64,000 bases of DNA, taken from Bacillota bacterium (GTDB lineage: Bacteria; Bacillota; UBA994; UBA5500). The stretch spans positions 16,681-80,680 of the forward strand of contig JAEZJZ010000046.1 of NCBI GenBank assembly GCA_023436245.1, written 5' to 3'. Below are positions 26,947 to 54,403 of this stretch, piece by piece (positions within the stretch are counted from its first letter, which is position 1; the number at the start of each line of letters is the position of its first letter). The notes beneath the pieces were generated by a model. It was given only the letters and a program-made list of their open reading frames with translations, was not told the origin of the DNA and ran no database searches. Both the position numbers and the translations under genes were made by a program.

Positions 26947-28713
26947 ATGCAGGAGAAAAGCAAGGTTTCGAAGCAGTTGGCCCCGCTCTGGCCTTATGTC
27001 AGAAAACGCTGGCACCTACTGGTGGGCATCGTAGTTGCCGTGATCACGGGAGTGGGCGCAAACTTGCTCGTGTCCCGCGAACTGGGCGCCAGCGTCGACT
27101 TCGGCCTGGCTGGCGACATGTCCGGCTTCTTGCGCAGCCTGCTGGTGATCGTCGTCGCCTCCACCATTTCGGACGGAGCCTTCTTCACCCGCAGCGCATT
27201 GGCTGGTCGAGTCGCCGAGCAAATCTGCCATCAATTGCGAGTCGCCGCCGTCACCCACCTCAGTCACGCCAAGCCTCAAGCCCTACAGGGCACTCACAGC
27301 GGCGACTACACTTCCCGTCTGAGCAATGACCTAACCCTGGTGCGCGCCCTGTTCGCATCGGAAGCAGTGATGTTGATTCGTGCTCCCCTGCAGTGCGCAC
27401 TTTCTTTGGGTCTGATGCTGCTCGTCTCCTGGAGGCTGACCCTGCTCTCCGTGGCCATTATCCCCCTTTTGATGCTGCTCTCCAACCGCGTCAGCCAGCC
27501 GATCAATGCACAGTCACAGATCGCGCAGGCGGAGCTGTCCAAGGTGACAGCACTATCACAGGATGCCATCCAGGGCACGCTGGTTACCAAGACGTTCAAC
27601 CTGCAGCAGACAATGGCAGACCGCTACTGTGCGGCTGGACAGCGGCACGTTTCGGCGGCGATCAGCTTGGCAGGCAGCCAGGCCACCCTGCGCGCTGTCT
27701 CCTTCCTGATCGACTTGGCTCCCCTGTTGGTACTGTTCGGGTTGGGTGGGTACGAGGTGATTAGGGGCCGCCTCAGCTTGGGCGACATCATCGTGCTGCT
27801 CAATCTGGTCGGTAACCTCAGTTGGCCGTTGCAGATGATGGTGCAGGCGATGGGGCGAGTGAAGGCCACTGGACCGGCTGTGGCCAGGACCTTCGCCATC
27901 TTCGACCTGCCGCTGGAGCGCTCCGGCGGGAGCTCGCCAGTGACTACACCAGCAGCCGAGGCGGCAATCGAAGTGGCCGATCTTCACTTCTCCTACGGCG
28001 ATGAACAACCTGTGCTCAATCGGTTCAACCTGCGGGTCAACACTGGGGAGACGGTGGCGATCGTGGGTCCGAGTGGCGCTGGCAAGAGCACCCTACTCTC
28101 CCTGCTGCTCGGTCTGCTTGAGCCTGACGCGGGGGAAATCCGGGTCAACGGGCAGTCCGCCGCTGACTTGACTCTGGCCCATCTGCGGAGTCAGTTCTGC
28201 TACGTGCCGCAGGAGCCGACCTTGTTTGCGGCGAGCGTACGCGACAATATCCGCTTGGGAAGACCGGAAGCCACGAACGAACTGGTTCTGGCTGCCGCCA
28301 GGCAAGCCTTTGCACATGAGTTCATCAGCGCTCTACCTGCGGGCTACGACACCATCCTTGGAGAGAACGGGCAGGGGCTTTCTGGCGGACAGAAGCAGCG
28401 CATCGCCATCGCTCGGGCGTTTCTGCAGGATGCTCCGATTCTGTTGCTGGATGAAGCCACCTCCGCGTTGGATACCGAATCTGAAGCGAGGATTCAGTTG
28501 GCAACTGAGGCTCTGCGCCAGGGGCGTACCATGCTGGTGGTGGCCCATCGCCTCTCCACCATCCAATCGGCCGATCGGATTGCTGTGCTCGACCAAGGCC
28601 GAGTGGTTGAACTGGGTAGGCACGCCGACCTGATCGAGCAGTCCGGCCTGTACGCTTCACTGTACGAGAAGCAGCTGTCCTGCCAGGAGCACAACCTGGC
28701 GGCCAATTCTTAA
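26947..28713 (+). CDS. ABC exporter, fused permease/ATPase (half-transporter 1)
   Basis: N-terminal six-helix TMD. Walker A GPSGAGKST, signature LSGGQKQR, Walker B LLLDEATS, H-loop VAHRL. Confidence 0.9.
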   Translation: MQEKSKVSKQLAPLWPYVRKRWHLLVGIVVAVITGVGANLLVSRELGASVDFGLAGDMSGFLRSLLVIVVASTISDGAFFTRSALAGRVAEQICHQLRVAAVTHLSHAKPQALQGTHSGDYTSRLSNDLTLVRALFASEAVMLIRAPLQCALSLGLMLLVSWRLTLLSVAIIPLLMLLSNRVSQPINAQSQIAQAELSKVTALSQDAIQGTLVTKTFNLQQTMADRYCAAGQRHVSAAISLAGSQATLRAVSFLIDLAPLLVLFGLGGYEVIRGRLSLGDIIVLLNLVGNLSWPLQMMVQAMGRVKATGPAVARTFAIFDLPLERSGGSSPVTTPAAEAAIEVADLHFSYGDEQPVLNRFNLRVNTGETVAIVGPSGAGKSTLLSLLLGLLEPDAGEIRVNGQSAADLTLAHLRSQFCYVPQEPTLFAASVRDNIRLGRPEATNELVLAAARQAFAHEFISALPAGYDTILGENGQGLSGGQKQRIAIARAFLQDAPILLLDEATSALDTESEARIQLATEALRQGRTMLVVAHRLSTIQSADRIAVLDQGRVVELGRHADLIEQSGLYASLYEKQLSCQEHNLAANS

Positions 28714-28727
28714 GGAGGGTCGTGGCG

Positions 28728-30461
28728 ATGAAGACTAGACCAACCCTGCAGAGACTCTTCGGCTACTTGAGTGGGTATCGGCGCACCTATCTGGCGGGCT
28801 ATGGCTCAGAAGTAGCAGTGGAAGTTGCGCTTGAACTGACCTTAGCCTATCTGATCAAGGAACTGACCAACGCCGCTGTGCATCTGGACCTGCAACTCTT
28901 GCTGCAGGTTGCGGCCGTCTGCACCGGAATCACGCTGGCGGCAGTGCTCGTTCTGCCCGCTGCCATCCGCGCCCAGAAGGGAGCGGCCGAACAAGCGGGG
29001 CTTGACCTACGCCAGGCAGTCTTCCAACAGATCAACCGGTTGCCGCAGGCGCAACTGGAAAAGATGCACAGTGGCGATCTGGTCTCCCGCCTAACAAACG
29101 ATGTGACCGCCGCCAAGGATGCATTCGGCTCCGTGCTGATCCAGGTGGGCGTCACCGTCTGCGTGGGCCTGGGCTGCGCACTCTACATGTTCCTCTTGAG
29201 CTGGAAATTGGCGCTGGTGGCTCTCACCTTCGGCCTGCTCCCCTACTGCTTCAACCGCCTCACAGCCAAACGCCTGCGGCAGCGCAGCAGCGCTGTGCAA
29301 TCGGGCCTGGGCAACCTCAATGCCCATCTGAAGGATATACTCACAGGCGGGAGAGTGTTGCGCGCCTACCGTCAGGAGGAGCGCTTCATCACGGCATACG
29401 ATACCACCAGCCGAGAGACGCTGCGGCACGGTCTCGGCCGGGTGTGGCTGCAGAGCTTTGTGAACACGGCCAACGGCTTCTTCTCGAGCTTGGGACTGAT
29501 TGGACTGCTGTCGCTGGCCAGCTACCTGATCATCACCAGACAGATCAGTCCCGGGGCGGCGATCGCAGCCGTGCAGTTGATGACCCGCATGATCCGCCCC
29601 TTTCAGGTTCTGGGAGACCTCTGGGGGCAACTGCAGCACTCGTTGGCGGCAGCCGATCGTCTCTTCGTCATTCTGGACTCTGAGCCGGAGAGCTTGGCTG
29701 CGACAGGTGCGCCGGCACCCGACTGCCACGAGGAGGGCCTGCGACTGGTTGACGTGAGCTTTAGCTATGGCGAGAGGGCTGCAATCTCCGGCATCAATCT
29801 GACAGTGCCCAGGGGGCAGACGATCGCCCTGGTCGGCCCCAGCGGAAGCGGCAAGAGCACGTTGTTCAAGTTGCTGCTCGGTCTCTACCAGGCAGAGGGC
29901 GGAGCTATCTTGCTGAATGGCGCGAACATCCGCAACCTGGGGCTGCAGCGGCTGCGCGCGCAGATCGCCTTCGTGCCACAGGACTCGTACCTGTACGCGG
30001 GAACAATCAGCGAAAACATCGCTTACGGTCGTCCCGGCGCCAGTCGGGAGGAGATCATGCAGGCGGCACAGGATGCCAACGCCCATGACTTCATCATGAC
30101 CCTGCCGCAGGGATATGACACCCCGGTCGGTGAAAGAGGTAATCAGCTCTCAGGCGGCCAGCGACAGCGCATCAGTATTGCCCGGGCAATACTAAAAGAC
30201 GCCCCCTTCCTGCTCTTGGACGAGGCGACATCCAGTCTGGACAGCGAGTCAGAGGGGCTGGTGCAGAACGCGCTGACGCGGTTGATGGCGGGTCGCACCA
30301 CCCTGGTGATTGCCCACCGCCTCTCCACCATTCAGCATGCCGACTGCATTCACGTGCTGTCAGACGGCCAGATCGTGGAGTCAGGCACACACGACGAGTT
30401 GCTGGCCCAAGACGGGCTCTATCGACATCTCTATACCATGCAGGAACACCAGGCCGCATAG
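28728..30461 (+). CDS. ABC exporter, fused permease/ATPase (half-transporter 2)
   Basis: GGAGGG lies 8 nt before ATG 28728. GPSGSGKST, LSGGQRQR, LLLDEATS and IAHRL are present. It is probably the heterodimer partner of the upstream gene. Confidence 0.9.
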   Translation: MKTRPTLQRLFGYLSGYRRTYLAGYGSEVAVEVALELTLAYLIKELTNAAVHLDLQLLLQVAAVCTGITLAAVLVLPAAIRAQKGAAEQAGLDLRQAVFQQINRLPQAQLEKMHSGDLVSRLTNDVTAAKDAFGSVLIQVGVTVCVGLGCALYMFLLSWKLALVALTFGLLPYCFNRLTAKRLRQRSSAVQSGLGNLNAHLKDILTGGRVLRAYRQEERFITAYDTTSRETLRHGLGRVWLQSFVNTANGFFSSLGLIGLLSLASYLIITRQISPGAAIAAVQLMTRMIRPFQVLGDLWGQLQHSLAAADRLFVILDSEPESLAATGAPAPDCHEEGLRLVDVSFSYGERAAISGINLTVPRGQTIALVGPSGSGKSTLFKLLLGLYQAEGGAILLNGANIRNLGLQRLRAQIAFVPQDSYLYAGTISENIAYGRPGASREEIMQAAQDANAHDFIMTLPQGYDTPVGERGNQLSGGQRQRISIARAILKDAPFLLLDEATSSLDSESEGLVQNALTRLMAGRTTLVIAHRLSTIQHADCIHVLSDGQIVESGTHDELLAQDGLYRHLYTMQEHQAA

Positions 30462-30518: not shown

Positions 30519-30586
30519 TGTTGCTTGCAGGAATTTCCTTCTGGCATGGCGAAAGAGGCAGCAACCACTTACTGGGAGGCGATCTG

Positions 30587-31777
30587 ATGCGCAGACGACC
30601 AGCACTCACACTGATCGTTCCACTGCTCTTCCTGGCTCTACTCTTGGGCTCCTGCTCCCGACCACCTACCACTCTGACTAGCGAACAGAAGTTGGCCGAT
30701 TTTGAGTACCTGTGGCAGGTGCTGCACGATGAGTTCCCCATGTTTGGCGTGACCGAGCGGCAGTACGGCGTGCGCTGGCTGGAAAACTACGATCAGTATC
30801 GCCAGAGCGTGGCTGAGAGCAAGCACGATCTCGATTTCGCGGAGGCGATGGACAGGATGCTGCGAGATCTGCACCAGGGGCATACCCATCTTCTCTCGCC
30901 TAACGAATATGCGGCCTTTGTGGCTATGTTATCGGAGCCTGCATTGAGGGAGATGCATCAGGTGAAGGTGATGAACCTGGTGCTGCAGGAGCCGGATGTA
31001 ATCGAACGCTATCAAATCTGGGGCAAAGCGGTCAAGGTTTCGACTGCGCCGAATCTTGGCGCGGTCATTCCGAAGGATAACGTAATCACCCGCATCGAGG
31101 TCCCCGACCAAGTGGCCTATTTGCGTTTGGCGAGCATGGCAGAATACGCCGACGATGACGCCAGGATCGCAGATTTCCTGGCGAGCATCAGCGATTACCC
31201 CTATCTGATCATCGACATTCGCAGCAATGGCGGGGGCAGCGACCTCACCTGGATGAAGAAGATTGTCGCCCCGCTGCTGCAGAGTCCGATCAGCTACACC
31301 AGCTACAAGGTACTGCGCGGAGGTGACTTGGCAGAAAACTACTGGGGCGTCCAGCGCAACCTGCTGCCCATCGATGTACTACCGAAAGCGCCATGTTACC
31401 CGCCGGAGGTGTTCAGTGACTTCCGCTACGCCGAGAAGACCGAAGCGACAATCAAACCTTCTGGAAGCGGCTTCGGCGGCGAAATCTACCTGCTGGTCAA
31501 CCGGGGTGTGTTCTCGGCCTCAGAGGGTTTCGCCTGTTTCGCCAAGTGCACTGGCTGGGCCACGTTGGTGGGACAGCGCACCGGCGGAGATGGCATGGGC
31601 TCCACTCCCATACTGATCAAGCTACCCGAAAGCGGCTTGCTGGTAAGGATGCGACTGGAGATGACCCTTAACCCAAATGGCAGCAGCAACTCCGAGTACG
31701 GAACTGCGCCGGATATCACGGTCGCTCCGACTGAAGACTCGCTATCCAAGACACTTGAACTAATTCAGTCACGATGA
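30587..31777 (+). CDS. S41-family peptidase, lipoprotein
   Basis: GGGAGG lies 7 nt before ATG 30587. Lipobox LLLGSC. IIDIRSNGGGS and LVNRGVFSASEGF match S41 catalytic-region motifs. Confidence 0.8.
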   Translation: MRRRPALTLIVPLLFLALLLGSCSRPPTTLTSEQKLADFEYLWQVLHDEFPMFGVTERQYGVRWLENYDQYRQSVAESKHDLDFAEAMDRMLRDLHQGHTHLLSPNEYAAFVAMLSEPALREMHQVKVMNLVLQEPDVIERYQIWGKAVKVSTAPNLGAVIPKDNVITRIEVPDQVAYLRLASMAEYADDDARIADFLASISDYPYLIIDIRSNGGGSDLTWMKKIVAPLLQSPISYTSYKVLRGGDLAENYWGVQRNLLPIDVLPKAPCYPPEVFSDFRYAEKTEATIKPSGSGFGGEIYLLVNRGVFSASEGFACFAKCTGWATLVGQRTGGDGMGSTPILIKLPESGLLVRMRLEMTLNPNGSSNSEYGTAPDITVAPTEDSLSKTLELIQSR

Positions 31778-38753: not shown

Positions 38754-39098
38754 GTGAAGCTGCTGATCGCCGTCGTGCATGACCAATGCAGCGGCAGATT
38801 GACCGAACAACTGGTCGCCAAGGGCTATCGTTCGACCAAGCTATCCTCAACCGGAGGGTTCCTGCGAGCCGGGAGCACCACTTTGCTGATCGGCGTTGAG
38901 GCCGAGCAGGTGGAATCGGTATTGAATGTCATCAGAGGCGTCTGCCACACCAGCGAGCAGTTGACGCCCGTGCCCAAGGAAGTTGTGGCCGGGCTGTCGT
39001 CACCGCCGCTGCATACCCTCTCCGGGGGAGCGGTTGTCTTCGTGCTGAACGCCGTGCCGTGGGCAGGGACACTTCAGCCTCCGGTAGAGCGTCCTTGA
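38754..39098 (+). CDS. darA: cyclic-di-AMP receptor DarA (PII-like, DUF970)
   Basis: KLLIAVVHDQCSGRLTEQLVAKGYRSTKLSSTGGFLRAGSTTLLIGVE...GGAVVFVL closely parallels my recollection of B. subtilis DarA. GTG start with GGGAAGG 9 nt upstream. Confidence 0.85.
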   Translation: MKLLIAVVHDQCSGRLTEQLVAKGYRSTKLSSTGGFLRAGSTTLLIGVEAEQVESVLNVIRGVCHTSEQLTPVPKEVVAGLSSPPLHTLSGGAVVFVLNAVPWAGTLQPPVERP

Positions 39099-39144
39099 CG
39101 AACCTGCTGCTCGGATGTGTTCATCCCAGGAGGAGTTGACACCG

Positions 39145-42100
39145 ATGCCTACCAATGGAAACCTGCCTCGCGCCATCGCACAGATCCTGCTCTTCTGCTT
39201 GCTTGCGGGAGCAGTTGCCCCGCCGGCGATGGCCGCGAACCCGCCCAATGGACGCGAACTGGCCATGTCGTCCGGAACAACGCTGGTGCAAAGACAACCC
39301 AGCACGCCGGGGGAAGCAGCGATCGTGGCCATCATGCAAGCGGGCACCGCCAACCAACTGGCGAACGAGACTCATGCCGCCCACATTGCGGAGCACATGG
39401 TCTTTCAGAACCACCCGCCGGCAGAACCCTCCTTGACGGATCAGATTGCTGCCTGGGGCGGAGTGGCGAATGGCCATACTGGACTAGAGCATACCAGCTT
39501 TGAGATCACGGTACCGGAGGAGCACATAAAGGATGCTCTGGCTCAGCTACTCGCCTCCCTGTTCACCGCCGATTATGACCAGGCGGTCTACGAGCGCGAA
39601 CTGAACGGGTACCTGCGAGTGGAACTGCGCAATATGACCGCAAACTACCCGACAGCCATTTACAATGGTTTTCGTCAGCACATCTTCCAGGGCAGCGCCT
39701 ACGCAGAAGATCTGCTTGGCGTGGACATCACCCAGGTGCACTCTGCAACTGTCTCCAGTTGGCAGCAACGGGAGTATGGCGCTAATCGCCTGATCCTGGT
39801 GGTGAACAGCAACACTCCCTGGCCGGAACTCTGCGCCGCAGCCGAATCAGCGCTGCGTGGCGCTCCGCGGGCAACTTTGTCCATCCCGCCCATAGTCTTG
39901 GCGCCCCCGACAGAAGGCGAGTTTGTCTCCACTGGGGTCGGGAACATCACCGCGGTGCTTGGCCTCTCGCTGGACAGGGTCACACCCAATGATCGGGCCG
40001 CGCTCTCCCTCCTGCTGGAGCTGCTGCAGCGGCGCATGCGCTTTGGTGCCATCCGAGATCTGGAGCCTGTGACCGAGGTTTTTGCCACTTTCTGGCAGAG
40101 AGACTCAGTCTATCTGCAACTGGCATATGAGCAGAGGTCAGGGGTCCTCAACCAAGGGCAAGATCCAGTGCTGGCGCAGCAAACGGAGCTCGTCAAGGCA
40201 GTGCAACTGCTGGCGACACAGCTCGGCCCTGGCGACCTGCACCTGCTCAACCGATCCACGCAGACCTCGGACGAGCCAGTTCCGCTGGTGAGTGAAACGC
40301 TGCAAGAAGCCTGGCAATTGGCCGACCGATATGTGGCTGAGTCCTGGTCGCCTGCAGTGGTTATCGAGGAAGACGAACAGACTCTGCTTGAGAGCCTACA
40401 GACTGTAGCTGCCAAGTATCTCCCCCACGCCAAGCTGACCGTGCTCCGAACCTCACCGACAGCGCCCGCGCTCGGGCCACTGGCTGTCGCAGTCGCCTGT
40501 TTGGCCGCGTTGGTCGGGCTGGCGTCGCTGACTGTGCTGCTCACGGCTAAGCGAAACGCGAACGTGCGGACGCTCTTATCCCTGATCACGGTCACGCTCA
40601 AGTCTCTCCTCAGGCAGGGGATGGGGGGTGGGAATCAGGACGAAGCGAACAAGCGTGCTTTCTGGCGATGGGTTTTTGCAGCCATTCTGATGGTGACCAC
40701 GGTGTGGCTGACCAACATGGTCGCGCAAATCTGCATGCTCCTCGGCCAGCCTGAACTGCTGTTCGTGTTGGCTAGTGCCGCCCTCTGCCTGATGCTGTTC
40801 TTCTCCGGAGGAAGCTTGCTGCTCTCTGTGTTTCTCTGGTCGGGAGACAGCGAGCGCCTAGCAGCGTTGCCGCTTCCCTCAGTCCACATCGTTTTGGCGC
40901 GCCTACTGATCGCCATTTTGGGGCAGTTCCCGTTCTCTCTGCTGGTGCTCATCCCGGCCACCCTGAAATACGCTCAGTACATGGGCAAAGGACCACTCAT
41001 CTGGGTGATGATGACGCTGGTCAGCCTGCTTCTGCCCATTTTGACACTCACACTGGCGGCACTGCCGATCGTGGCGTTCATGCGCCGGATCACACCGCGC
41101 CTGCGGGAGAGGCTGGCGGCAATCGCCTCGATCTTGCTCTCGGTCGCTTTGATGCTATTTAGGCTAGCTCAAGGAAACAGGAGCCCGTTGGACATGAAGT
41201 CCCTCGTGATGCAGTCCCTGCAACTGCGACAGCAGGATCTGGCCGGACAAATCGGCCGGGTGTTCCCGCCGGCGGCCTGGGCTGGGCGAGCGCTTGCGCT
41301 CGACGGAACCTGGAGCGGAGCGGGCAGCCTGCTGCTGCTCACCCTGACCGCTCTGCTCTGCCTCTGGGTGCTCTCTCGGTTATCCCAGAGGTTGTACCTG
41401 GGAGAGCCCTCTCTGGCAACACCGCTTGCAAGGAGGCAGAAAGCCAGTAAGCAATCAGGCTCTGCCAGCCCGGTGTTAGCCCTCTGGAGACGAGAATGGA
41501 AGCTGTTCTGGCGGACGCCGGCCTTGCTGGCCGTCACTCTACCGAACACACTGATGCCACTCTTGATCATCTATCCCCTGCTCAGCTCCGGCGCCAGAGA
41601 GCAAGGCCTCTGGGTGATGGCCCAAACCCTAAGAGTCACCTCGCGTCACTCTCTGGTTTCTGCACTCGCAGCTGGCGCGCTGGCGATGTTGGTGGTCACC
41701 AGTTCGCGCCTGGCTTCGGTCAGCGTCTCCGGCGAAGGATCTCGCTTCTACTTCTCCAAGATGATTCCGGTGGAAGCTAGTACCCAAGTGCAGGCAAAGC
41801 TGCTCAACTGCCTGGTCATCAACGGCTTGTGCATACTGCCAGGGTTGCTACTAGTGACAATTTGGCTGCGACTCAGCGCCCTGAACTGCGTTGCCGCCAT
41901 ACTCGCATCTTCCGTCGGCCTGTTCTTCGCCACCACTGTCTGCATTAAGCACGACCTGGCCTGGCCACGCCTCGAATGGGACAACACGCAGATGTTGATC
42001 AGGCAGGCAAACACCATCGGACCAACCATAATCATCCTCTTAGCTTCGGCCGCGACCGTCTGGTTGGCGTTCTCCTTGCGAAGAGGCGGGTGGGCGATGC

Positions 42101-42207
42101 CCTTGATTTATGCCCTAGTAACCGGTGCCTACGCAGCCCTCGGCTGGGTCAACTACCGATCATTGATCGCGCAGGCAGAAGAGCTTTACGCCCAGATTGA
42201 TCTGTGA
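39145..42207 (+). CDS. secreted M16 (insulinase-type) peptidase domain fused to a polytopic double permease-like membrane domain
   Basis: Signal peptide ending PPAMA-A. Inverted zincin HIAEH plus the downstream YERELNGYLRVELRN Glu cluster. From about aa 450 there are ~12 hydrophobic helices in two modules, the second opening with LALWRREWKLFWRTPALL as ABC-2 permeases do. Confidence 0.75.
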   Translation: MPTNGNLPRAIAQILLFCLLAGAVAPPAMAANPPNGRELAMSSGTTLVQRQPSTPGEAAIVAIMQAGTANQLANETHAAHIAEHMVFQNHPPAEPSLTDQIAAWGGVANGHTGLEHTSFEITVPEEHIKDALAQLLASLFTADYDQAVYERELNGYLRVELRNMTANYPTAIYNGFRQHIFQGSAYAEDLLGVDITQVHSATVSSWQQREYGANRLILVVNSNTPWPELCAAAESALRGAPRATLSIPPIVLAPPTEGEFVSTGVGNITAVLGLSLDRVTPNDRAALSLLLELLQRRMRFGAIRDLEPVTEVFATFWQRDSVYLQLAYEQRSGVLNQGQDPVLAQQTELVKAVQLLATQLGPGDLHLLNRSTQTSDEPVPLVSETLQEAWQLADRYVAESWSPAVVIEEDEQTLLESLQTVAAKYLPHAKLTVLRTSPTAPALGPLAVAVACLAALVGLASLTVLLTAKRNANVRTLLSLITVTLKSLLRQGMGGGNQDEANKRAFWRWVFAAILMVTTVWLTNMVAQICMLLGQPELLFVLASAALCLMLFFSGGSLLLSVFLWSGDSERLAALPLPSVHIVLARLLIAILGQFPFSLLVLIPATLKYAQYMGKGPLIWVMMTLVSLLLPILTLTLAALPIVAFMRRITPRLRERLAAIASILLSVALMLFRLAQGNRSPLDMKSLVMQSLQLRQQDLAGQIGRVFPPAAWAGRALALDGTWSGAGSLLLLTLTALLCLWVLSRLSQRLYLGEPSLATPLARRQKASKQSGSASPVLALWRREWKLFWRTPALLAVTLPNTLMPLLIIYPLLSSGAREQGLWVMAQTLRVTSRHSLVSALAAGALAMLVVTSSRLASVSVSGEGSRFYFSKMIPVEASTQVQAKLLNCLVINGLCILPGLLLVTIWLRLSALNCVAAILASSVGLFFATTVCIKHDLAWPRLEWDNTQMLIRQANTIGPTIIILLASAATVWLAFSLRRGGWAMPLIYALVTGAYAALGWVNYRSLIAQAEELYAQIDL

Positions 42208-42320: not shown

Positions 42321-43273
42321 GTGATTGAGACCTATATAGCTGAAGCTGGCCAGGCTGAGATCCGGAAGGCGGATGAGCCGAAACGCCCAGCTCGAGAGCA
42401 AAACATTTGGGTGGACATTGTGGCCGGTTCGCCGAAGGATGCGATCAGTTGTCCTGCGACTGCCCACCCTTCATTCTGCAGCATGTCGGGCAGAAGCTGC
42501 ACCGCCCGCGCATCAGCAACTATGAGCCCTTTCACCACATCGCCTTCTCGGCGCTGCAATCCGCGCCGAACCCAGGGGCAGCAGCCGAACTGGTGCACAT
42601 CGTCTTCACAGATCGCCTCCTGCTCACCTACCACAGCAAGACAATTCCCGCCATCGACTCAATGAAGCAGCGCCTGCAACAAGCGGGCGGAGCTACCTTG
42701 CTCAACGACGGGATCGGCTTCTTTCTGTATAACCTGCTGGACGAGTTCATCGACGCCAAGCTGATGCGCCTCGACGCGCTGCAGGATGTGGTGGACAAAA
42801 TCGAGACCGAGGCTCTGCAGCGCCCGAGCTACCGACTGAACGAGAAGATTCTTGAGCGGCGTCGCAGCCTGCAGAGTGAACGGCGGCTGGCATCAGCCGA
42901 GCGGGATGTGCTCAACCACCTATTGCGGGCGGAGTTCTCGCTGGCGGGTCGGGAGCTCGACCGCTATTTCCTGGATCTCTACGACCACATGAGTCGCATC
43001 GTGGAGATCATCGACACCAGGCGCGAGCAACTGACCGATGTGTCGGAGCTGTTGATGGCAGTAACAGCTCAGCGCACCAATGAAATCATGAAGGTGCTGA
43101 CCATCGTCTCCACCATCTTCATGCCGCTGACGCTGATCACCGGCATCTACGGCATGAACTTCGTGCACATGCCGGAACTCGGCTGGCGCTTCGGCTACCC
43201 CCTGGCCTTGGGATCCATGGCGGTGATGGTGGTGGGGATGCTGGCCTATTTCCGCAAGCGAGGCTGGATCTAG
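42321..43273 (+). pseudogene. corA: CorA-family Mg/Co transporter, reading frame interrupted by an apparent -1 frameshift
   Basis: AGGAGG lies 7 nt before GTG 42321, giving a CorA-like N-terminus (NIWVDIVAGSPKDA). The rest (PPFILQHVGQKLHRPRISNYE ... YGMNFVHMPEL) is in the -1 frame from TTG 42407, which has no SD. The switch lies around 42440-42475. Confidence 0.7.
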
Positions 43274-53530: not shown

Positions 53531-54403
53531 ATGGCCAATCGCCTAAGCACAGAGAACTTGCAACTGTCCTTCGGCAGAGGCAATCGCGCGCTCGCGGGCG
53601 TGTCTTTGCGGCTCACTCCCGGAGTCACGGCCGTGCTGGGGCCGAACGGTTCCGGCAAGAGCACGCTGCTGCGCTGTCTGGCCAGCGTGCTCACTCCCAC
53701 CAGGGGCGAGGTCCGCTGGAACGGCGGGGATGTGTGGCGGGATATCGCCAGCTATCGCTGGCTGCTTGGCTATCTCCCACAAAGCTTCTCCGGGCATGGC
53801 CAACTCACCGTCAAACAGTTCCTCGGCTATATGGCCGCCCTGAAACTGCTTCCCCTGCAACTAGCACCGCAGCGCGTCAGCGCGATGTTGACCATGTTCA
53901 ACCTGCAGGCATATGCGGACACCAGACTGACGCAACTTTCCGGCGGTCTGCTGCACCGGGTGGGTCTAGCCCAAGCCATACTCAATGACCCGGATCTGCT
54001 GATTATGGACGAACCGACCGTCAGCCTGGACGCGGAAGAACGACTGGCCTTGCTTGATCTGATTCGCCAGCAGGCGCAGGAGCGCATAGTCGTTTTCTCC
54101 ACCCATATGACAACCGATGCAGAAGCAGTGGCCGACCGCCTAGTCATTCTGAACGACGGGCGAGTGTTAGCTCATCTGCCGACCTCGAGCCTGATTGAAC
54201 AATGCCGCGGCTTGGTCTGGGAGCTTGAGCTGCCGGACGCATCCGCCCTGCCTGAGGAGGCGATCATCTGCAGATCGACCACGCAGGGTAAGTCGCTGCA
54301 ACTGCGCGTAATCCTGCCGGAGCGGCCCCCTCTCTCCTGCACACCCGGCTGCCCTAGCTTGGAGGATGCCTATCTGGCTGCCATTCACCGACTGCTGCGG
54401 TAG
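53531..54403 (+). CDS. ABC transporter ATP-binding protein
   Basis: Walker A GPNGSGKST, signature LSGGLLHR, Walker B LLIMDEPT. It lies 4 nt after the upstream membrane-protein gene. Confidence 0.88.
   Translation: MANRLSTENLQLSFGRGNRALAGVSLRLTPGVTAVLGPNGSGKSTLLRCLASVLTPTRGEVRWNGGDVWRDIASYRWLLGYLPQSFSGHGQLTVKQFLGYMAALKLLPLQLAPQRVSAMLTMFNLQAYADTRLTQLSGGLLHRVGLAQAILNDPDLLIMDEPTVSLDAEERLALLDLIRQQAQERIVVFSTHMTTDAEAVADRLVILNDGRVLAHLPTSSLIEQCRGLVWELELPDASALPEEAIICRSTTQGKSLQLRVILPERPPLSCTPGCPSLEDAYLAAIHRLLR

Follow-up and report, generated by a model that had tools for sequence, protein, structure and literature searches.

A fusion of an exported M16B peptidase with a predicted ABC exporter membrane domain in an uncultured Bacillota family

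The fusion gene and its product

The gene described here lies within a 64,000-nucleotide (nt) stretch of genomic DNA from a Bacillota bacterium; this whole stretch is referred to below as the window. A single open frame, 39115/39145 to 42207 on the plus strand, encodes an intact product of 1020 codons, P0001, in which an exported M16B peptidase subunit is joined to what is predicted to be the membrane domain of an ATP-binding cassette (ABC) exporter of type V (ABC-2). Since an AGGAGG Shine-Dalgarno sequence precedes the ATG at position 39145 and homologues start at the equivalent Met, this codon is the preferred start. A preliminary description, made from the letters of this DNA alone, had reported a 1020–amino acid (aa) frame starting with a signal peptide and continuing with an M16 peptidase and a permease-like region, with no ATPase nearby. 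The frame and the signal peptide, like all other factual points of that description, were borne out. Features of the gene and of its immediate surroundings are collected in Table 1.

Table 1. Features of the fusion gene and its surroundings. Coordinates are those of the window, and residues are those of P0001; TM, transmembrane helix.
Feature	Coordinates	Strand	Basis or remark
Signal peptide, aa 1-30	39145..39234	+	Hydropathy peak at aa 11-29; predicted cleavage after A-M-A
Extracytoplasmic M16B peptidase subunit, both alpha/beta domains, aa 31-440	39235..40464	+	Pfam, Protein Data Bank (PDB) match, model
HIAEH zinc-binding/catalytic motif (H80, E83, H84)	39382..39396	+	Translation
Downstream Glu pair E152...E160 (ELNGYLRVE)	39598..39624	+	Translation
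Linker membrane helix TM0, aa 444-470, outside to inside	40474..40554	+	Strongest hydropathy peak; model helix
Membrane half 1, aa 472-750	40558..41394	+	Alignment with the permease of contig C102; model helix boundaries
Basic disordered cytoplasmic linker, aa 751-775	41395..41469	+	Low model confidence
Membrane half 2, aa 776-1020	41470..42204	+	Alignment with the C102 permease, models, Foldseek
Shine-Dalgarno sequence AGGAGG	39128..39133	+	Read from sequence; serves ATG 39145
darA (cyclic-di-AMP receptor)	38754..39098	+	PF06153, 94 bits; 46 nt upstream of the fusion gene

In the predicted signal peptide, one basic residue (Arg) precedes the hydrophobic core, the cleavage site consists of A-M-A followed by A, and the N termini of homologues are alike. 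An AlphaFold model of the full-length protein, obtained with a 77-sequence alignment, had a mean predicted local distance difference test score (pLDDT) of 86.5 and a predicted template modeling score (pTM) of 0.79; its N terminus is a helix at aa 7 to 23 and a low-confidence segment at aa 23 to 34. The adjoining region matched the Pfam profile PF00675 (Peptidase_M16) at aa 62 to 183, with 28.9 bits when the whole protein was searched and 30.9 bits when aa 1 to 440 were searched; both values exceed the curated cutoff of 22.3 bits. An NCBIfam search of P0001 returned only a weak pitrilysin match in this part. Assigned separately, the N-terminal half is a peptidase by profile, and the C-terminal half is a transporter by homology and fold, as detailed below.

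The HIAEH motif and the downstream Glu residues, noted from the outset, are retained. In an alignment of six full-length homologues, HIAEH, R151/E152, R158-V-E160-L, and the transporter motifs are invariant; HxAEH is also kept in two further fusions (P0012 and P0013) and in three stand-alone tail-anchored peptidases. The best PDB sequence match of the ectodomain was 3amj_C, the active subunit of the Sphingomonas A1 M16B peptidase. In this alignment, HIAEH is paired with HALEH, and E152/E160 are paired with an E...EE segment with a one-residue insertion. E160 is located 80 residues past H80, which is the usual distance of the third zinc ligand in M16 enzymes such as insulin-degrading enzyme, pitrilysin, and mitochondrial processing peptidase (MPP). 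When the model was compared to the PDB with Foldseek, aa ~30 to 440 aligned over ~430 to 445 columns with whole M16B subunits (target-normalized TM-scores of 0.67 to 0.73), including those of Sphingomonas (3AMI), Helicobacter pylori (5EUF), and Thermus (3EOQ/7V4Y), MPP-beta, and core protein 1 of the bc1 complex. Since the alignments extend over entire M16B subunits, the ectodomain, as modeled, is a complete two-domain M16B subunit and not a fragment.

The possibility that P0001 carries a degenerate, noncatalytic M16 domain was rejected, as the motif residues are invariant and align with those of 3amj_C. The M16 domain is probably active, as initially proposed, and faces outward. A second exported M16 gene was not found in the genome; its other three M16 genes encode proteins with no signal peptide.

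The C-terminal part of P0001 is polytopic, with 1 + 6 + 6 helices indicated by hydropathy, the positive-inside rule, and structural models. The hydropathy segment of TM0 (aa 446 to 468) is followed by the basic sequence KRNANVR, and in the model TM0 forms one continuous helix at aa 444 to 470. The last peptidase beta strand ends at aa 438, TM0 begins ~5 residues later at aa 444, and TM0 continues straight into a cytoplasmic connecting helix 1, modeled at aa 472 to 489. Because of this arrangement, the peptidase in the model sits near the membrane surface on a short, stiff tether.

Membrane half 1 consists of connecting helix 1, TM1 to TM6, a coupling loop (SVFLWSGDSERLAALPLP), and external helices with FPPAAWAGRAL, and it keeps residues that are nearly invariant throughout the family (G555, D568, L572, L575, P576, and P708). 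The disordered linker between the halves is contained in a cytoplasmic loop (aa 744 to 793) with 10 Lys/Arg. Half 2 comprises connecting helix 2 (LALWRREWKLFWRTP), TM7 to TM12, the coupling helix SVSGEGSRFYFSKMIPV, and a cytoplasmic loop, DLAWPRLEWDN. The preliminary description had divided this region into two consecutive polytopic modules, the second of which opens like an ABC-2 permease. The polytopic character stands, and the ABC-2–like opening corresponds to connecting helix 2; the modules, however, appear not to be separate but to be the two halves of one type V domain, preceded by TM0.

A separate model of aa 441 to 1020 (pLDDT of 89.2 and pTM of 0.84) was used in another Foldseek search. 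The best matches, over ~510 to 530 columns, were to Rv1217c (8k1o/8k1p/8k1m/8k1n), followed by CcmB, NosY, PmtD, Wzm, and ABCG2. The predicted structure has the hallmarks of type V: 6 + 6 unswapped helices, a cytoplasmic N terminus, connecting helices, and coupling helices after TM2 and TM8. No C39, ABC_membrane, or ABC_tran match was detected in P0001 with Pfam or NCBIfam.

The same genome encodes a stand-alone 558-aa permease on contig C102. Residues 477 to 1020 of the fusion align with residues 4 to 558 of this permease at 30% identity (expect value, E, of 2e-56), and the two proteins have in common the motifs FPPxxWA, REWKLFxRTP, SxEGxxFYxSKMIPV, PRLxWxN, and a C-terminal LYxxIDL. TM0 is absent from the C102 permease, as the alignment starts at aa 477 of the fusion. 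Since the alignment is end to end, the fusion contains a full permease with one extra helix in front. A word-index homology search with the C-terminal half yielded only 4 proteins; an exhaustive, profile-free search over 1.84 billion representatives yielded 2114 relatives at E ≤ 1e-3, nearly all of them ~550 aa long and a few ~1025 to 1042 aa long. Assignment of the C-terminal half to a nontransporter family was rejected on account of the C102 homology, these 2114 relatives, and the fold found by Foldseek. According to the models, the C-terminal half is a complete single-chain membrane domain of a type V (ABC-2) exporter, a diverged relative of PF16949 (ABC_tran_2).

Distribution, natural variants, and genomic context

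Nine full-length fusions were found, all in one uncultured, spore-forming Bacillota family. Full-length homologues of 1024 to 1042 aa, with identities of 68, 49, 46, 44, and 41% to P0001, come from one NCBI metagenome-assembled genome (MAG) and several Logan assemblies. The exhaustive search added P0012 (1027 aa) and the distant P0013 (1034 aa, with HAAEH), and a scan of GTDB genomes added a 1027-aa fusion at locus L012. The genomes that bear fusions were labeled by submitters as “Bacillota bacterium” or “uncultured Clostridia bacterium” and carry spoIIIA and gerA-type genes. The fusion is old, conserved, and narrow in distribution, and neither a precursor gene or other gene for a ribosomally synthesized and post-translationally modified peptide (RiPP) nor a partner ATPase gene is conserved beside it at the loci examined.

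The junction between peptidase and permease (~40450 to 40554) corresponds to the linker helix and is gap-free in the six-sequence alignment. An assembly artifact, a frameshift, or a missed stop codon at this point was rejected given the conserved junction in nine independent full-length versions, and the junction is accordingly real. A metagenome contig from the Joint Genome Institute (JGI) carries two separate gene calls in place of one, P0003 (674 aa) and P0011 (339 aa), which are 82 to 93% identical to the product of the window gene. The break between them falls within membrane half 1, at aa ~656 to 682. This position, away from the domain junction, points to a frameshift or a misassembly of the contig.

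To place the fusion among its relatives, all 10 genomes of the GTDB order were surveyed, which is a small sample. Every genome (10/10) has a match to a canonical permease, that is, one resembling the C102 protein. The exported M16 protein is present in 6 of the 10 genomes: in four it is fused to a second permease (in the genus of the window and, at 31% identity, in a second genus); in one, G004, it and a second permease are encoded by separate genes; and in one, G012 (94% complete, 510 contigs), the second permease was not detected. Thus, five of the six genomes with the exported peptidase have the second permease (four fused, one separate) versus none of the four genomes lacking it. Within this small census, the co-occurrence supports a functional link between the two halves.

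The ectodomain also exists as a stand-alone protein of 480 to 483 aa in two other genera, with a signal peptide, a C-terminal membrane anchor, and an Arg-rich tail. On contig C51 of G004, a member of the same family, the gene of a tail-anchored 480-aa M16B protein (L023 1396-2838) and that of a 572-aa permease (L054 3011-4729) are 16 kb apart. This permease is nearly identical to P0014, has 13 helices including the extra N-terminal one, and has no adjacent ATPase gene. The separate genes of G004 provide a ready-made split control for the fusion.

In a maximum-likelihood tree of 51 membrane domains, the eight fused forms, P0014, and a peptidase-less form, P0008, make up one clade with 100% support in the Shimodaira-Hasegawa–like approximate likelihood ratio test, apart from 41 canonical permeases. 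P0014 is basal in this clade, and P0008 is nested beside P0006 with 99% support. The P0008 locus and the fusion locus L003 share flanking genes: Peptidase_M3 and methyltransferase genes upstream, and GntR and ABC ATPase genes downstream. In the simplest history, a canonical permease was duplicated, the copy lost its ATPase linkage and gained TM0, a single fusion with a tail-anchored exported M16 protein followed, and one lineage later dropped the peptidase.

Immediately upstream of the fusion gene lies darA. No terminator-like or promoter-like site was found between darA and position 39145, and the two genes probably share one transcript; darA is considered as context only and not as part of the machine. 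Among the loci examined, darA is a neighbor of the fusion elsewhere only in its closest relative, L002. A riboswitch was not found in the darA leader, where the sole Rfam match was below threshold, inside coding sequence, and on the wrong strand. Other neighbors in the window are corA, a DUF218 gene, an extracytoplasmic function (ECF) sigma pair, and 2-oxoacid:ferredoxin oxidoreductase genes. The neighborhood varies by genus: fusion genes are found next to darA and corA in the window and L002, divergent from spoIIIA in L001, and among unrelated genes in L003 to L006. No conserved precursor, radical S-adenosylmethionine (SAM), or other RiPP modification gene was present beside genes of the fusion clade at the 10 loci examined.

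The corA gene of the window seems to be split. An open reading frame (ORF) with a GTG start and a strong Shine-Dalgarno sequence (42321-42665) overlaps a 288-aa ORF in another frame (42407-43273), whose Pfam CorA match begins only at profile position 26; the CorA of L002 is intact (320 aa). Some 7 to 12 kb upstream of the fusion gene, an exported S41 (tail-specific-type) peptidase gene (30521-31777) is located behind a gene pair for a heterodimeric type IV ABC exporter (26947-30461). A link between this exporter pair and the fusion was considered, since in L004 a similar pair follows the fusion gene at a distance of 500 bp, but rejected: the pairs are only 34% identical and are therefore generic paralogues and not conserved synteny.

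Energization, proposed mechanism, and alternatives

The absence of an ATPase gene, pointed out in the preliminary description, holds for the locus. No ABC ATPase gene adjoins the fusion gene, and the nearest ones in the window belong to complete, unrelated transporters (26947-30461 and 53531 onward). The ATPase encoded at 53531-54403 was rejected as a partner: its identity to the canonical ATPase is only 31%, and a six-helix protein of its own is encoded upstream of it. On contig C102, however, a 240-aa ATPase gene of the DrrA/ABC-2 type (C102:11497-12219) abuts the gene of the 558-aa PF16949 permease, whose ATG begins on the last base of the ATPase stop codon (the pair spans C102:11497-13895, L010 5498-7896). 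Because this DrrA-type ATPase lies beside the paralogue, “no ATPase” describes the locus and not the cell. Immediately downstream of the C102 pair follows a spore germination receptor operon of the gerA type (GerA/GerB/GerC-like ORFs, L010 7998-11733), and such pairs of an ATPase and a PF16949 permease occur in 46 of 151 sampled genomes of the phylum (~30%).

When the C102 ATPase was used as a tblastn query, 29 of 29 canonical loci across the phylum had a 47 to 82% identical ATPase directly upstream. The two canonical loci of the same genus, L008 (the locus of the query) and L016 (90% identity), are also ATPase-linked, bringing the canonical total to 31/31. A canonical permease match was present in every fusion-bearing genome searched. 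In G000 and G001, an ATPase gene was confirmed next to it; the G002 contig stops a short way upstream of the permease gene. In the genome of the window, no orphan DrrA-type ATPase was seen, as the 20 closest paralogues of the C102 ATPase inspected each adjoin a membrane protein. An AAA-type ATPase gene that is divergent from the unfused permease gene of G004 was rejected as a partner; its orthologue in the genome of the window is on contig C113, far from the fusion.

The similarity of the fused and canonical consensus sequences is distributed unevenly: it is 0.75 in connecting helix 2, 0.57 in coupling helix 2, and 0.54 in coupling loop 1 versus 0.34 in the membrane helices. Connecting helix 2 and both coupling elements are also the most conserved parts within the fused clade (0.71 to 0.78), and all residues that are nearly invariant in the family are kept in the fusion. 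In type V exporters, the connecting and coupling elements contact the ATPase (PMC11406275). As the ATPase-contacting segments are the best conserved and the canonical partner is present in the genome, there is moderate evidence at the sequence level that the fusion retains the ability to dock nucleotide-binding domains, the simplest candidates being those of the paralogous pump.

Our favored reading, which we hold tentatively and give slightly less than an even chance, is of a pump that borrows the ATPase of its paralogue and delivers a hydrophobic peptide out of the membrane to the tethered peptidase for cleavage. The membrane domain would act as a type V exporter energized in trans by two copies of the ATPase encoded at C102:11497-12219, whose binding is predicted. 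A hydrophobic or amphipathic substrate, here a peptide, would be expelled from the membrane, would emerge directly beneath the membrane-proximal M16 subunit, and would be cleaved by it. The substrates of type V exporters are typically lipophilic or partition into the membrane, as exemplified by PmtCD (phenol-soluble modulins), LanFEG-type immunity pumps, and ABCG/ABCA lipid pumps, and M16 enzymes cut unstructured peptides within a closed chamber. Since M16B enzymes work as two-subunit clamshells, the chamber might be closed either by the ectodomain of a second, paired fusion chain or by the permease with its outer face.

A coupling of peptide cleavage to export or immunity is plausible. Because the gene is solitary and has different neighbors in different genera, a housekeeping or defensive role, in which peptides that act on or are retained in the membrane are disposed of or detoxified, appears more likely than dedicated maturation of a product. 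An “extract-and-shred” reading, in which the ATPase of the paralogue is time-shared, ATP both lifts peptides from the membrane and gates the M16 subunit, and the outer face of the permease closes the chamber, goes further and seems rather unlikely.

Several observations weigh against the pump reading. The partner ATPase was detected at 0 of the 10 fusion-clade loci examined, where tblastn revealed only unrelated ABC ATPases with 27 to 33% identity. The PF16949 score of P0001, 21.2 to 22.6 bits (21.2 bits for the match at aa 537 to 920), is just below the cutoff of 25.7 bits; the corresponding scores are 33.5 bits for the fused homologue of G002 and 55.6 bits for the C102 permease. A shift in function would be compatible with the long branch (0.41) that leads to the fusion clade. 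Each half is able to exist alone. P0008 (587 aa, L011 4080-5843, Logan assembly SRR23193565) has TM0 and an intact permease and has lost the whole M16 part, and in three genomes no permease adjoins the stand-alone tail-anchored peptidase: in the two genera mentioned above and in a third example, P0155, from another MAG. Finally, no substrate of any PF16949 transporter was found in the literature.

The main rival explanation is that the duplicated permease no longer transports anything and serves, without an ATPase, as a membrane anchor or as a peptide-recognizing platform for the peptidase. It accommodates the contrast between clade loci (ATPase gene at 0/10) and canonical loci (31/31), the lack of a visible orphan DrrA-type ATPase in the genome, the long stem branch of the clade, and the occurrence of the same peptidase with a single tail anchor in related genera. 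On the other hand, 575 residues and 12 helices are a high price for an anchor when a single helix would do, and the best-conserved parts of the fused clade are the connecting and coupling elements, which contact the ATPase (PMC11406275). The permease of P0008 has also stayed intact after loss of the peptidase, which suggests that it is valuable on its own. We consider a pure scaffold possible but doubtful.

ATP-driven movement of the membrane domain might instead open and close, or activate, the M16 chamber with no substrate being moved. Type V and VII ABC systems that drive partners on the outside include NosDFY, CcmAB, and FtsEX, and both NosY and CcmB are among the structural neighbors of the fusion. 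The ~5-residue joint between the peptidase and TM0 and the straight passage of TM0 into connecting helix 1 would make a stiff, force-transmitting connection. However, such a mechanically gated protease requires the same predicted ATPase in trans, and the stand-alone tail-anchored peptidases presumably work undriven. This explanation is unlikely.

Slightly less probable still is the analogy, drawn in the preliminary description, with the sbo-alb bacteriocin operon of Bacillus subtilis, under which a precursor or bacteriocin would leave through the pump and lose its leader outside to the tethered M16 subunit, for maturation and export or for producer immunity. In the subtilosin operon, M16B pairs are encoded beside ABC components, and the structure of an AlbF homologue, 7y8u, was a weak match (E of 0.05). 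A cluster of PqqD, ScmC, and nucleotidyltransferase (NTP_transf_5) genes is also present in L003 (16667-19353, minus strand), ~3.6 to 6 kb from the fusion. It may be a ribosomal-peptide cluster, but it lies on the other strand, recurs at none of the other fusion loci, and is probably a coincidence. Neighborhoods differ in every genus, and no precursor, radical-SAM, or modification gene is conserved, with no RiPP genes at the 10 loci. In the B. subtilis control, the PF16949 profile matched nothing; membership of AlbD in this family is therefore not detectable. The analogy is weak, and gene context does not support it.

A false join of two genes or a decaying pseudogene, for which the two-piece call P0003 + P0011 on the JGI contig could be cited, is hardly credible in view of nine independent versions of equal length, the gap-free junction, the invariant motifs, and the location of the JGI break inside half 1.

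Comparison with known systems

Both halves of the fusion come from well-studied superfamilies, but no earlier description of an M16 peptidase covalently joined to an ABC exporter membrane domain was found. In line with the initial impression that no such fusion had been characterized, the literature contained no described M16-permease fusion that we could find, nor relevant work on PF16949/ABC_tran_2 or on membrane-anchored M16B proteins; likewise, no described type V exporter with a protease on its outer side was found. One bacterial family supplies a comparison set of fused, split, peptidase-less, peptidase-only, and canonical ATPase-linked forms. It makes several questions testable: whether an ABC membrane domain without its own ATPase gene can share the ATPase of a paralogue, what the cargo of the widespread PF16949 transporters is, and whether a membrane pump can feed or drive an M16 “cryptase.” Should the substrate prove to be a membrane-active peptide, the fusion would represent a new kind of device for peptide resistance or clearance. 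If the “extract-and-shred” reading is true, it would be the first ATP-coupled extracellular peptidase of its kind, with one ATPase serving two different membrane domains.

The closest structural relative of the membrane domain is Rv1217c-Rv1218c of Mycobacterium tuberculosis (8K1M/8K1N/8K1O). This type V exporter has both membrane domains in one polypeptide, served by a homodimer of Rv1218c, and has connecting helices before TM1 and TM7 (PMC11406275). Like the fusion, it has a single 12-helix chain with connecting and coupling helices, and the C102 paralogue resembles it in having one small ATPase gene, the product of which is necessarily homodimeric. Unlike the fusion, Rv1217c lacks both an outside domain and an additional helix at the N terminus, and its gene lies next to that of its ATPase. 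With ~15% identity and TM-scores of 0.36 to 0.43, the two proteins belong to the same fold class but to different families.

The canonical Bacillota pairs of a PF16949 permease and a DrrA-type ATPase are related to the fusion over the whole membrane domain and share with it the motifs SxEGxxFYxSKxIPV and PxLxWxN. They differ in that the permeases are ~550 aa long, have neither a peptidase nor TM0, and are encoded with an ATPase gene immediately upstream (31/31).

On the peptidase side, the M16B proteins (Sph2681/2682, 3AMJ; TTHA1264/1265; 5EUF; MPP; and the bc1 core proteins) have the same two-domain fold and, like the fusion, the HxxEH motif with a downstream Glu. Known M16B enzymes are generally described as soluble homo- or heterodimers; the fusion, by contrast, has a single type of exported subunit, covalently tied to a polytopic transporter domain, and no partner gene. 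The bc1 core proteins sit in respiratory complex III, and in plants the bc1 complex also has MPP activity; by analogy, bc1 would be a precedent for an M16 pair on a membrane complex.

In the sbo-alb operon of B. subtilis, the M16B-like proteins AlbE and AlbF are encoded together with the ABC ATPase and membrane protein AlbC/AlbD. There, however, the genes are separate and belong to a radical-SAM peptide cluster, and no such cluster is present at any fusion locus; the Alb M16 proteins are also not known to have signal peptides. Closest in concept are the peptidase-containing ABC transporters, in which a C39 cysteine peptidase sits on the cytoplasmic side, where substrates enter a type IV exporter to which an ATPase is fused. 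They and the fusion are both single-chain combinations of a protease and a transporter that act, or in the case of the fusion are predicted to act, on peptides. The fusion differs from them in having a zinc-dependent M16 peptidase in place of C39, which is placed on the outside, and a type V membrane domain with no ATPase of its own.

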